DNA of 64,000 bases from a virus (Duplodnaviria > Caudoviricetes): positions 64,001-128,000 of the IMG/VR virus record IMGVR_UViG_3300011678_000001; one strand, written 5' to 3'. The notes under the pieces were generated by a model that did not search any database, was not told where the DNA came from, and saw nothing but the letters and a program-made list of their open reading frames with translations. A program made the translations under genes and the position numbers. Each line of letters starts with the position of its first letter. Positions within the stretch are counted from its first letter, which is position 1. This document shows, piece by piece, positions 36,705 through 40,199 of the stretch.

Positions 36705-37352
36705 TTAAGCGGTGGTGGCACTGTCCATGGACATGTCAGGTGGTGGGACCAGGTAGAAGCTCCATGTCACTGCCTCAAGTGCTGCTCGGTCATTGGCGGT
36801 ATACGCTGCCACGAGGCGCTTCTCTGCAGCATGGCGTTCTGCTGTGAATAATGCCATCGCCGGCGAGAACTGAGAGTCGTTGTGCAGTACCCGGTTGGTC
36901 AGGTCCAGAAGATCACTCTCCAGTCCTTTAGCAATGCGGCTCATGGCCAGGTCATACAGGAACGGTGCTAGTTCACGAGGAAAATCAGCCACAACGCGCG
37001 ACTGGTCTTCTGCTAACCACGATTTAACCATACGTGCATCGACCACCTGAACGGGCCAGGTGATGGTCTCAGCCAAGGGATAGCCTGACTTGATGTAGTC
37101 GACAGCAAAGTCATAATCTTCGTTGAGCTTCTGGACTCGAAGGTCGAAGACAGTCTTAAGTGGAACAATGACCGGTTCGGCAATCGGCGGCTCAATGGTG
37201 ATGGGATTACCTGACTCATCACTCGTCAAGATACGTCCTGCTTGAAGCTCGCTCAGGATACGCTGATAATCTTCCTCTGGGACAGCGACGACGTCAGCCC
37301 AGATGGTCCCGTCGTTGATAAAGGCATTCCGGCTAGGGGAATAGTACATCAT
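36705..37352 (-). CDS. Tail fibre assembly chaperone-like protein
   Basis: YYSPSRNAF...VAVPEEDY..L...GRIL.SDESGNP, GYPLAETITWPVQ..A, LEAVTW. Confidence 0.7.
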   Translation of the reverse strand: MMYYSPSRNAFINDGTIWADVVAVPEEDYQRILSELQAGRILTSDESGNPITIEPPIAEPVIVPLKTVFDLRVQKLNEDYDFAVDYIKSGYPLAETITWPVQVVDARMVKSWLAEDQSRVVADFPRELAPFLYDLAMSRIAKGLESDLLDLTNRVLHNDSQFSPAMALFTAERHAAEKRLVAAYTANDRAALEAVTWSFYLVPPPDMSMDSATTA

Positions 37353-37415
37353 GATAAAGGGCCTATTAAACAGTGAAGCGAAAAAGTCTCATAGGATGAC
37401 GCTCTGTTTACGGCC

Positions 37416-38278
37416 AAACAAAAAAAATAAAGGAAGAAAGTCTTGGGGAAGCTTGGATGTCCACAATTGCCGGAACGCTCAGGTTCCACTCAGGGGCGAC
37501 CTGAGCTGTGTACAAGTGCCATCTTCCCCGTAACCTTTGTTGCCATGCGCCTACGGTTTGGTAGGACTTAGATGACCTGTGGTCATCAGATAACCGAACT
37601 CAATCGGTGCGAGAGATTAGGTGGTAACCCAATGTTGTTACCCGACCTATGAAATGCTGACGGAGCCCACAGCCACCGTGCAATTCGACAGATCGAGCCG
37701 CTTTAAGTACCTGCCCGCTTACCTGTTCGCTTGGAGCTTCACCGCGATCAATTCCAATGTACAGCGATTCTCCGTTGTGACGTGGTAACGTCACCTTTGA
37801 CAGCACAATGGCCGGGATGTCGAGAAAGGCTGGATTGTTTGATGCACTAAAGTGTTGCTCGCTGGAGAACCAACCGGCTTGTGTCTTGCCGTGATGCCCC
37901 ATCAAGAGTCCGAGTAAGAAGACCAATACCAAAGCTGGTCCGCGTGTGACGATAATGTTCTCCGTTTCATGATAGGTTTAGAGGGCAGGTTAGACGCGCC
38001 CTGTTGCCGTCTCAGTTAAGTTCATAGTCACGTTCGGTCGCCACCGTACCATGCGCCTTATGCATGAGGCGGGACCGACTCCCGATTAAGTTCGTGCGAC
38101 GCTTACTGTGCCTGACCTCACGGTGCCGTGCAGGACGAAGGCGATAGAAGGGAGTCCAGTGGACCACCAACACCTTCTTTCTAATCCAGCACGACTGATG
38201 CCATGAGGTCGAGCGCAGGGCTTCGCTAAGCCAGCAAAAGTGCATGCAATTCCTTAGCCAATGTCACAGTGCTACTAC
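37416..38278 (-). ncRNA. Putative ~860-nt structured non-coding RNA
   Basis: TATG at 38281-38278; many hairpins; GGGGAAG/CUUCCCC-closed 3' domain followed by a U-tract; only weak ORFs. Confidence 0.55.
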
Positions 38279-38307
38279 ATAGATATAGCACTGATCGTAA
38301 AAACAAA

Positions 38308-38595
38308 CTACCCTACGGTAGTGGGCGTAATACCTCGCTGTTGAAAGTCTTCGGTGTGTTCCAAGAATACGAGGGTGATGTCCCCCGTCTCGATGTCGAT
38401 CAAGATCCGAGACCCCGGTTGAATGCTGGTGGGACGATTGCCCTCGAACTCGACAGTCATCTCGATGGTCCGCCCCATGGCAAACGACAGATGATTGTCG
38501 GTGCTGATCTCATTGATGATAACCACCAATTCGTTCATGTACCCGGCAATCAGGTTCAACAACGGATGATGGTGTTTGATGTTCTTAATACGCAT
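38308..38595 (-). CDS. Hypothetical protein
   Basis: Overlap-coupled to the upstream gene. Confidence 0.55.
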   Translation of the reverse strand: MRIKNIKHHHPLLNLIAGYMNELVVIINEISTDNHLSFAMGRTIEMTVEFEGNRPTSIQPGSRILIDIETGDITLVFLEHTEDFQQRGITPTTVG

Positions 38596-39022
38596 CTGGA
38601 AATCCTGGTAAGCATTGTTGGGCGAGAATGTCGATCAGAATGTCACTCGCTTCAGTCTCGACCTTGGCCGGTATGTTGTCCGACCCCCAGAGGAACACGT
38701 GACCGTGATCTTTGGCATACAGCGGTACCAGGGTCAGGAAACGATTGACTCCGTCGGGGTTGGCATCGTAGTTCTGAAGCAAGGCCAGGTGGAACGAACC
38801 TAGCTTCACATAGATCGTTTCATTACATCCCATCATGCTGGACTCGTACTTGACTATTTCAGGTTTCCCCAATAGCCCCCAGATTGCCAGTAATCGCCGA
38901 ATCGATTCGGCATCCGGAAAAGCCGGATGGTCTTTTGGTGCCGGTTTACTGTTTCGGGCCGCTTCGGTACTGACCTTAACCAACAACTTGCTCAAGATTA
39001 AGCAGACGTTTTGAATGTTCAT
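38585..39022 (-). CDS. Hypothetical protein
   Basis: AAGGAG RBS. Confidence 0.6.
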   Translation of the reverse strand: MNIQNVCLILSKLLVKVSTEAARNSKPAPKDHPAFPDAESIRRLLAIWGLLGKPEIVKYESSMMGCNETIYVKLGSFHLALLQNYDANPDGVNRFLTLVPLYAKDHGHVFLWGSDNIPAKVETEASDILIDILAQQCLPGFPDAY

Positions 39023-39038: not shown

Positions 39039-40199
39039 TTAACCAGTTATCATGGAGTTGCGACCGCGCCCGAGTGGACTATTCTGATAGTAGCTGGGCA
39101 TGCCCATGCCCATTGGACGTTCGATGTTTTTCACCGTCCTAACAAAGTTTGTCGGATAACCGTACTGCAATGTCACCGTCATACTGGTAACCTTACCCTC
39201 TATTCGGATCAGGTGTTTGTCGGTTTTGGACAGGGTTTCGGTATTTAACGCCACAGTAGTGGACAGGTTGGTCACCGACTCGTCTTCCTCCTTCCTCTGT
39301 TCGGTCAGGGACAAATCACCATCCAGAAGTGTCACATGGTAGCCGTAACCTGGATTGTCAATGATGGAGGCGTCGTCGAACTCGAGGTTCTCGATTTGCC
39401 ATTCAGTGACAGGGAACTTTGGCACGTTGAGAATCTCCAAGCGTGCGGCCAGTTCGTTCGCATCGGTCAGCCCGGCTGATTCACGAATCGCACACAACAG
39501 CGAGTCGTAATTGAGGTGCCCACGGCAGGAACGAGCATAGTACTTAAACGCCGCATGAAGCGATTCTGGGATGGACATGGTTTTAAGGATGTCCGCCAAG
39601 GTTTCCTGATCCACGCCGCCTTCGTACGAAATGGCGTAGCGGAAGCGCTGAGGACGACAGAACAGATACTCGGAGAACTCTTCGCTGTCGTTGCCGGTGA
39701 TGGCAAACATGACCCCGGTGAACGAGGTATCGCTGAACAGGGTCAGCATGCGCTGACGATCTTCTTTATCGCTGTAGACCTTACCGAATTCATCGATGTA
39801 GATCATGCAGGGTCCGATAGCCCGGATGATGATACGGATCTCTTCAGCAGACATGGGCGCATCAATCATGACCACAGGCAGGTCCTGTTTGATCATCCAG
39901 TTGCCGATCTCTTCAGCCATCAGGGATTTACCCGAGCCTTTCTGGCCATATAGCAGGACGCCGGTGCTGTTGCCCTCTTTGCTGTAATTGGAGGTGATCT
40001 GGTTGAAGTAGCGCTTATGACGCCCGAAACGCAGTTGTGGCAAGGTGAAGGACGGACGATCCTTGATCAGAATGATCTTGTCGCGCAGGACGGCTTTATA
40101 CACCATCGCAGGCACATGGTCGATGGTGTTTGATTGATCGGTGACCGAGATGGTCAGGACGTTGTCGTAGTTGTTGATGGTGATAGATGATTTAGCCAC
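39039..40199 (-). CDS. AAA+ ATPase
   Basis: GVLLYGQKGSGKS, MIYIDEFGK, RPQRFRY. Confidence 0.85.
   Translation of the reverse strand: MAKSSITINNYDNVLTISVTDQSNTIDHVPAMVYKAVLRDKIILIKDRPSFTLPQLRFGRHKRYFNQITSNYSKEGNSTGVLLYGQKGSGKSLMAEEIGNWMIKQDLPVVMIDAPMSAEEIRIIIRAIGPCMIYIDEFGKVYSDKEDRQRMLTLFSDTSFTGVMFAITGNDSEEFSEYLFCRPQRFRYAISYEGGVDQETLADILKTMSIPESLHAAFKYYARSCRGHLNYDSLLCAIRESAGLTDANELAARLEILNVPKFPVTEWQIENLEFDDASIIDNPGYGYHVTLLDGDLSLTEQRKEEDESVTNLSTTVALNTETLSKTDKHLIRIEGKVTSMTVTLQYGYPTNFVRTVKNIERPMGMGMPSYYQNSPLGRGRNSMITG

Follow-up and report, generated by a model that had tools for sequence, protein, structure and literature searches.

The unit, its limits and its relatives

The window analysed here is a stretch of 64,000 nucleotides (nt) that comprises bases 64001-128000 of the complete 269,790-bp jumbo-phage record IMGVR_UViG_3300011678_000001 in IMG/VR. 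Within it, on the minus strand, which carries all of the genes around it, lies a structured unit of ~870 nt (37416-38285) that extends from the U-run of an upstream terminator to a second U-run at 37416-37437. The original prediction, made from the sequence alone, took this interval to be a gene-free, hairpin-dense region encoding a candidate giant non-coding RNA (ncRNA). We find a conserved RNA fold along the unit and, within it, two open reading frames (ORFs), ORF1 (77 codons, 38012..38245, minus strand) and ORF2 (117 codons, 37600..37953, minus strand), and the unit is interpreted below as a probable messenger whose translation would be gated by its structure. The predicted limits and hairpin density hold: there are U-runs on both sides, and the TATG at 38281-38278 falls within a conserved 21-nt motif. 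The region is not gene-free, as both frames are open in all 14 members of the family.

Relatives of the unit were found by searches with the ORF2 protein and the flanking proteins, by DNA motif scans and, for Pseudomonas phage pPa_SNUABM_DT01 (DT01), by synteny. Fourteen sequences carry the unit; they belong to three clades of jumbo phages with genomes of 250-277 kb, and each genome has one copy. Clade A consists of the window, L012, L007/L008, L002, L005/L006, L009-L011 and L015, and clade B consists of 276-kb phages and fragments (L022-L025 and L031-L033). DT01, which grows on P. aeruginosa, is the closest cultured phage (64% identity in the ligase, 50% in the AAA ATPase) and carries one copy of the unit. 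A blastn search of the region against GenBank phages came up empty, as the DT01 copy has diverged too far for it, and it was synteny that revealed this copy instead. In the DT01 GenBank record (L020:4427-5300, equal to MW735835 249926-250799), ORF1 alone of the two frames is annotated, as PA10_00292, while the ATC-started ORF2 and the 3′ domain sit in a 640-nt gap without annotation. The whole unit is placed at MW735835 249862-250781. Short-motif matches in metagenome and genome contigs (L016-L019, L026-L030) showed no similarity beyond the motif and were rejected as chance, and the literature searched offered no specific report of such an RNA from jumbo phages.

The unit is stand-alone and dispensable, as seen from its upstream terminator, the varying gene upstream and a natural deletion. 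Its 5′ limit is the terminator at 38307..38322 (minus strand), an ACUACC-GUAG-GGUAGU hairpin followed by a U-run, within which the upstream gene of 95 amino acids (aa) ends at 38308. The gene directly upstream differs between phages, being this 95-aa gene in some and a 356-aa gene in others. In L003, a 254-kb relative, a deletion (L003:6080-6240) fuses codon ~38 of an ATPase gene to what is left of the unit, its terminator domain. Missing are the remainder of that gene, the two genes of 145 and 95 aa, and ~770 nt of the unit. Because L003 keeps the terminator domain alone, either the deleted genes and the unit are dispensable or the L003 genome is defective. Recombination has also occurred inside the unit: L031:376-940 joins an L024-type ORF1 to an L023-type ORF2, and within clade A the L005 copy is a mosaic, resembling the window in mid-ORF2 and L009 elsewhere.

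In the window, the genes upstream of the unit are an AAA-type ATPase of 386 aa (39039-40199, minus strand; PF00004, phrog_2376) followed by the 145-aa and 95-aa orphan genes. This block lies upstream of the unit in some relatives and is absent from L005 and L009-L011. Downstream, a 215-aa gene (36705-37352, minus strand) starts at 37352, and its first 57 residues match phrog_188, tail fibre assembly (E value 1.4e-8); the DT01 homologue of this gene is located 17 kb from the DT01 copy of the unit. A search with ARAGORN gave neither a tRNA nor a tmRNA. An alternative genetic code was considered and is unnecessary, as table 11 gives normal translations of the flanking genes.

Near the 5′ end of the unit, the 21-nt motif TATGTAGTAGCACTGTGACAT (38261..38281, minus strand) is nearly invariant in all three clades. 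It occurs once in the 270-kb genome, and a scan of viral contigs places it in relatives of the unit only. In a contig from a Lachnospiraceae metagenome-assembled genome (L029:3212-3234), 23 consecutive bases of the motif follow TTGTTTTTG; there is no other similarity and the match is probably due to chance. No sigma-70 promoter was found in the right place at the unit. A TTTAC upstream of it was rejected as a -35-like box, being part of the U-run of the preceding gene's terminator, and a Vfr/CRP site at TGTGAC was dropped as a poor match by eye. Outside the window, a 742-aa open frame of the phage (G000:C1:196442-196801) matches RNA polymerase Rpb2 domain 6 (PF00562, 40.7 bits), and searches of the phage for T7-type polymerase and Sigma70_r2 gave no match; the phage probably transcribes with its own multisubunit RNA polymerase. 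Because the motif is invariant and unique, and because a beta-like polymerase gene is present and Sigma70_r2 is absent, the motif may be a promoter for this polymerase, or it may mark the 5′ end of the RNA. The RNA expected from the unit, of ~0.9 kb, would begin in TATGTAGTAGC.

The RNA fold and its conservation

When folded as RNA, positions 37416-38280 reach -315.5 kcal/mol, compared to -282 ± 7 kcal/mol for dinucleotide shuffles (z = -4.7, with 0/20 shuffles as good). The clade A alignment (7 sequences, 912 columns) yields a consensus of 211 pairs in which 92.1% of cells are paired and 58 pairs have changed on both sides, the structures having been predicted on the same alignments that were used for counting pair changes. 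Sliding the 3′ partners by 1-3 columns as a control left 11-20 pairs changed on both sides, and none of 500 shuffles reached the observed values. The alignment of DT01 with clade B (4 sequences) gives a similar result, with 209 pairs, 91.3% of cells paired and 52 pairs compensated versus 3-12 in the slid controls. A conserved structured RNA with compensatory changes beyond those of the controls is strongly supported by these counts. The covarying helices run through both ORFs, and ~300 nt of the unit in the window are non-coding structured RNA, of which the 3′ domain makes up 180-290 nt.

The absence of a family match noted in the original prediction was confirmed. Rfam 15 gave no match in the 64-kb window at the gathering threshold, and at E values up to 10 the interval 37000-38700 returned two chance-level matches, a snoRNA and a miRNA, both outside the unit; the covariance models of the large phage RNAs GOLLD and ROOL were unmatched. 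Most of the stems listed in that prediction exist in the sequence and are kept in relatives with compensatory changes, among them GUGACGU/ACGUCAC, GGUAAC/GUUACC, GAUGACC/GGUCAUC, CCUAC/GUAGG, GGGGAAG/CUUCCCC, UCGGUC/GACCGA and AGGGC/GCCCU. The proposed pairing of GCUCAGGU with ACCUGAGC is not conserved, its first arm being wholly changed in relatives while the CUGAGC loop is kept, and the direct repeats of 7-9 nt that had been listed occur near the chance frequency for 880 nt and are not conserved.

The fold can be followed from the end of ORF1 to the terminator. A nested hairpin at the end of ORF1 (38033..38079, minus strand) is built as UCGGUC / CGCC / CAUGC-loop-GCAUG / GGUG / GACCGA and is followed by GGUGGCGACC. 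Its apical stem occurs in four versions (CAUGC/GCAUG, CACGG/CCGUG, CACGU/ACGUG and CACGC/GCGUG), and the hairpin is also present in DT01 and clade B. An H-type pseudoknot, AGACG..AGGGC..CGUCU..GCCCU (37982..38012, minus strand), separates the stop of ORF1 from the ribosome site of ORF2. It was read directly from the clade A sequences, where both stems are kept in three versions, namely AGACG/CGUCU with AGGGC/GCCCU, AGGCA/UGCCU with GGGCC/GGCCC, and GACAG/CUGUC with GGGCA/UGCCC; stem 1 is indistinct in L015. The pair counts for helices 6-7 understate the pseudoknot because MAFFT misaligns it.

The ORF2 coding sequence folds into a long-range rod (37698..37938, minus strand), in which the signal-peptide codons at 37912-37938 are predicted to pair with a segment 210 nt downstream (37698-37724), with nested helices inside this pairing up to GUGACGU-UACC-ACGUCAC (37777-37794). 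In clade A the rod helices 9-19 are 82-100% paired, most of them above 92%. They include a double swap from CU/AG to UC/GA at columns 378-379/610-611, and in hairpin 19 (GUGACGU/ACGUCAC) 6 of 7 pairs are compensated, in 5 versions. For clade B and DT01 the prediction gives a similar rod (helices 15-20). The rod is followed by an irregular 22-bp hairpin (37642..37696, minus strand; helix 20, 97% paired), which spans the end of ORF2 in relatives and in which the column pair 639/647 is GC in 4 sequences and AU in 3.

The first part of the 3′ domain (37540..37641, minus strand) consists of the hairpins GGUAAC/GUUACC, CCGA-UUGAGU-UCGG, GAUGACC/GGUCAUC and CCUAC/GUAGG (helices 21-24). The ORF2 stop of the window sits in the loop of the second of these, and in helix 23 compensation is found in 5 of 6 pairs. 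The CCGAUUGAGUUCGG hairpin is conserved in clade B, and DT01 has a CUGAUUCGAUUAAG version of it. In the putative terminator domain (37416..37539, minus strand), AAGGUU/GACUUU and GGGGAAG/CUUCCCC close a three-way junction that holds two hairpins, one of them with the CUGAGC loop (helices 25-28), and the U-run 37416-37437 follows. The same shape is obtained when each sequence is folded singly. When the clade A terminator domain alone was used to build a covariance model (R1), the model recovered the DT01 and clade B copies over their full length and where they were expected (E values of 4e-5 to 0.05), with one match in the whole genome. A U-run follows the closing stems in all members; the branched "loop" of ~80 nt is not called by a simple terminator scanner.

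A helix proposed by RNAalifold between UGUGAC of the 5′ motif and GUCACA at the ORF2 start was rejected: in L007 and L015 it is disrupted by uncompensated changes, and its partner is missing from DT01 and clade B.

Two reading frames within the fold

ORF1 has its own Shine-Dalgarno sequence (SD), AAGGA at 38251-38255, which is followed by a 5-nt spacer and the ATG at 38243-38245. The frame is open for 66-77 codons in all members, beginning with ATG or GTG behind an SD in each, and its peptide is weakly conserved. The chance of such an ORF in shuffles is 6-12% per lineage. In L009-L011, three independent assemblies, a 1-nt deletion removes the stop codon and lengthens ORF1 to 123 codons (L009:3673-4044), so that it crosses the pseudoknot and then 95 nt of ORF2 in another frame.

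The ORF2 ribosome site (37951..37963, minus strand) consists of GGAG at 37960-37963, a spacer and an AUC at 37951-37953. The arrangement of GGAG, 6-8 variable nt and an invariant ATC is found in 14/14 sequences, with a second codon that varies. There is no ATG, GTG or TTG near the 5′ end of ORF2, and in the window an in-frame stop stands 9 codons before the ATC. The distance from the ORF1 stop to ORF2 is 40-67 nt and falls in all three phases, so ORF2 must initiate on its own. Fusion of the two frames by frameshifting or bypass was rejected on the same grounds, there being no constant phase, an in-frame stop before the AUC and no conserved matched codons. Metagenome gene callers call ORF2 from internal ATG or TTG codons only (43-100 aa). 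They miss or truncate the frame because of its AUC start, and the same holds for the GenBank record of the cultured phage.

The ORF2 frame spans 98-108 codons in relatives. In shuffles such a frame arises with a chance of 1-8% per lineage, and when the observed substitutions are re-placed at random it remains open 9-23% of the time per lineage. In a codon-blind nucleotide alignment of DT01 and clade B, ORF2 has six gap runs, each of a length divisible by three (6/6), compared to 4/19 in the 3′ domain and 2/8 in the intercistronic region (6/27 in total); in clade A, ORF2 has no indels. Between clade A and clade B/DT01 the ORF2 proteins show no similarity by blastp, and hhalign gives a probability of 0.1%.

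By inspection and hydropathy of the 14 N-termini, ORF2 is predicted to begin with a Sec-type signal peptide. In all three clades a basic residue is found among positions 2-5, the hydrophobic core scores 2.35-3.23 on the Kyte-Doolittle scale over 11 residues, and a small-x-small site is present; in the window the putative cleavage site is ..TQA|GWFSS, and the mature part would be 70-90 aa. The core is encoded by different codons, U-rich Leu/Val/Phe codons in clade A and GC-rich Ala/Leu codons in clade B.

These observations bear on the view that the unit is a giant RNA of which neither ORF is translated, the open frames being by-products of sequence constraint. The lack of a canonical ORF2 start would fit this view, as would near-neutral ratios of nonsynonymous to synonymous change (dN/dS) that other frames share, the absence of a protein family or a confident protein fold, strong covariation along the whole length and a size within the range of GOLLD and ROOL. 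Constraint on the RNA does not by itself yield frames that stay open in clades whose ORF2 cannot be aligned at the DNA or protein level, indels that keep the frame, a constant spacing between the SD and an invariant AUC, or a signal peptide that follows it and is written in different codons; ORF1, with its SD and its ATG or GTG in every member, also speaks against this view. We consider an untranslated giant RNA improbable. Of the giant ncRNA originally predicted, the large covarying fold, the putative separate terminator and the lack of an Rfam family stand, while its non-coding status does not.

A probable structure-gated messenger and its relation to known systems

Translation is supported by the frames that are open in unalignable clades, the in-frame indels, the fixed SD-AUC geometry and the signal peptides with differing codons. 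Together with the equally direct evidence for selection at the RNA level, this leads us to read the unit, with a probability of about 0.6, as a stand-alone, dispensable, structure-gated bicistronic mRNA with a structured 3′ domain of 180-290 nt that ends in a terminator. In this model, one RNA of ~870 nt would serve both as messenger and as elaborate fold, with the order 5′ motif, ORF1, nested hairpin, pseudoknot (in clade A only), SD-AUC, ORF2, and 3′ domain with terminator. The output of ORF2 would be small and gated, as the AUC is weak and the SD tends to be paired, and the signal-peptide codons would be locked in a 24-bp long-range helix with distal ORF2. In E. coli, initiation from AUC reaches 1-2% of the AUG level (10.1101/063800). 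Ribosomes that translate ORF1 and stop beside the pseudoknot could open or remodel this region and thereby allow initiation or re-initiation at the AUC. A precedent is timP, whose translation is controlled by a pseudoknot upstream of a sequestered ribosome site (PMC11228461). The 3′ domain would stabilise and terminate the RNA, with its closing stem and U-run acting as the terminator. The mature part of ORF2 is probably disordered. Judged by its size and export signal, ORF2 most likely encodes an accessory protein of the periplasm, of the type that phages employ for superinfection exclusion or lysis timing. The sequence comparisons establish the conservation and covariation of the unit, its open frames, the patterns of the ORF2 start site and signal peptide, and its dispensability; where transcription starts, that either ORF is translated, how the two are coupled and what the protein does are inferred.

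Several observations weigh against this reading. For ORF2, the ratio of nonsynonymous to synonymous polymorphism (pN/pS) lies at 0.4-0.9 (clade A) and 0.6-1.0 (clade B/DT01), versus 0.1-0.4 in neighbouring genes, other frames of the stretch give similar values, and the variable sites of ORF2 are distributed over the codon positions as 53/45/63, a periodicity that is not significant. ORF2 does not show the signature of a protein-coding gene under purifying selection. AlphaFold2 (AF2) gives no confident fold, with a mean pLDDT of 41 for clade A and 57 for clade B, where the signal helix alone is predicted. Pfam-A and PHROGs have no match to ORF1 or ORF2 of clades A and B, and a profile search of 1.84 billion representatives returned 3 proteins, all from the unit and all truncated by gene callers; ESM Atlas scores were at noise level (<=0.77). 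As a start codon, AUC is very rare. The predicted occlusion of the ORF2 SD is modest, with unpaired probabilities of 0.00-0.48 (mean ~0.26) versus a transcript mean of ~0.35. The pseudoknot is limited to clade A and is not seen in clade B or DT01. The C-terminal frame of ORF1 is shifted in L002 and L005/L009, and these shifts, like the loss of the ORF1 stop in one lineage, fit a fixed coupling geometry poorly. Recombination (L005/L009, L031) could mimic covariation and so inflate the counts of compensatory pairs. The evidence on protein-level conservation, by which the original prediction was to be judged, is divided, with the 14/14 open frames, the SD-AUC site, the signal peptide and the 6/6 in-frame indels on one side and near-neutral dN/dS on the other.

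The near-neutral evolution of the ORF2 protein leaves some probability for a dual-function reading. Here the fold would be the main product, acting as a scaffold, decoy or regulator, and translation would serve the RNA: ribosomes could shield it from Rho and nucleases or remodel it, the signal peptide could take it to the membrane, and selection would act on the start site, signal peptide and open frame alone and not on the mature protein. The values of pN/pS of 0.6-1.0 alongside an intact frame, start site and signal peptide agree with such a role, as do the helices that covary across both ORFs and the AF2 result for clade B. Synonymous sites of ORF2 evolve 2-5 times slower than those of flanking genes, with pS of 0.10-0.31 versus 0.66-0.73 in one comparison and 0.23-0.56 versus 0.63-0.79 in the other. 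The invariance of loops and of the motifs AAGGUUACGG and CCAAGACUU goes further than a terminator would require.

Against this, no target, partner or catalytic motif is known for the RNA. Mature ORF2 keeps motifs within each clade, for example GIDRGEAPSE and RTIQRVPKVH, although both overlap RNA helices, and fast-evolving secreted phage proteins may likewise show dN/dS near 1. Targeting of an RNA to the membrane by a nascent signal peptide is a conjecture. We regard the dual-function reading as unlikely, though it is less so than an untranslated RNA. It is to the same limited degree conceivable that the unit represents a new class of large phage RNA with a functional fold, in which the AUC-started frame tethers or remodels the RNA and the act of translation, not the protein, is selected; examples would be an RNA delivered co-translationally to the inner membrane or a structural switch timed by translation. 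The gated messenger and the dual-function RNA can be distinguished directly by experiment, since a family member, DT01, grows on P. aeruginosa.

A hok-like killer or lysis-timing cassette was also considered. ORF2 would then be membrane-active, its mRNA silenced by the fold until processed, ORF1 would play the part of mok, and an antisense brake would be possible. The folded mRNA, the upstream reading frame and the hydrophobic N-terminus are all present, and type I toxin mRNAs are known to use fold-back structures, coupling to leader ORFs and pseudoknot-dependent initiation (PMC9841398; PMC11228461). In the unit, a pairing is conceivable between the invariant GUAGC of the 5′ motif and a GUUAC at the terminator base. 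Both sides of this pairing are invariant, so that it lacks covariation, and L024 and L015 each break one pair. Instead of a peptide of <60 aa with a transmembrane segment, ORF2 encodes 98-117 aa that begin with a signal peptide of cleavable appearance and continue in a hydrophilic mature part, the two frames do not overlap except in L009, and a sequence scan revealed no conserved antisense promoter or terminator. Such a cassette is the least probable of the explanations weighed here.

If it is a gated messenger, the unit would be an unusual one for a DNA phage, with a coding sequence that is constrained by RNA structure as tightly as a ribozyme or an RNA-virus genome. It also gives a caution for genome scans, in that a gap without an ATG-started gene and with many hairpins is insufficient for an ncRNA call.

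The unit can be compared with several known systems. It resembles GOLLD (RF01998) and ROOL (RF03087) in its size of several hundred nt, its many covarying helices, its location in phages and its lack of a known function. It differs from them in matching neither model at E values up to 10, in carrying two conserved ORFs with ribosome sites, and in its restriction to one small group of jumbo phages. S. aureus RNAIII (hld) and SgrS (sgrT) share with it a long stable fold and an encoded small protein, and have a promoter and terminator of their own, which in the unit are putative; unlike these, about two thirds of the unit RNA is reading frame, there are two ORFs, and no regulatory target is known.

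T4 Spackle and RI are ~100-aa periplasmic accessory proteins of a large lytic phage that carry an N-terminal export signal and are non-essential. ORF2, with ~100 aa and a predicted export signal in a dispensable unit of a large phage, is similar in these respects, but it resembles them in neither sequence nor fold, and no comparable RNA structure encloses the T4 genes. The mRNAs of hok/Sok and timPR are alike in that the fold controls access to the ribosome site, as is proposed for the unit, in the upstream frame or pseudoknot near the start, in the hydrophobic N-terminus and in covariation. In contrast to these, the product of the unit would be ~100 aa with a signal peptide, its leader ORF is separate, its RNA has two to three times their length, and the sequence scan gave no sign of an antisense RNA. 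A parallel for the ORF2 start is infC, which likewise has a conserved weak AUH start behind a good SD, implying initiation that is sensitive to IF3 or to context. The start of infC is AUU, and the gene autoregulates IF3, whereas the start described here belongs to a phage accessory ORF; its presence as AUC in 14/14 sequences across three clades would place it among the clearest natural obligatory AUH starts outside infC.

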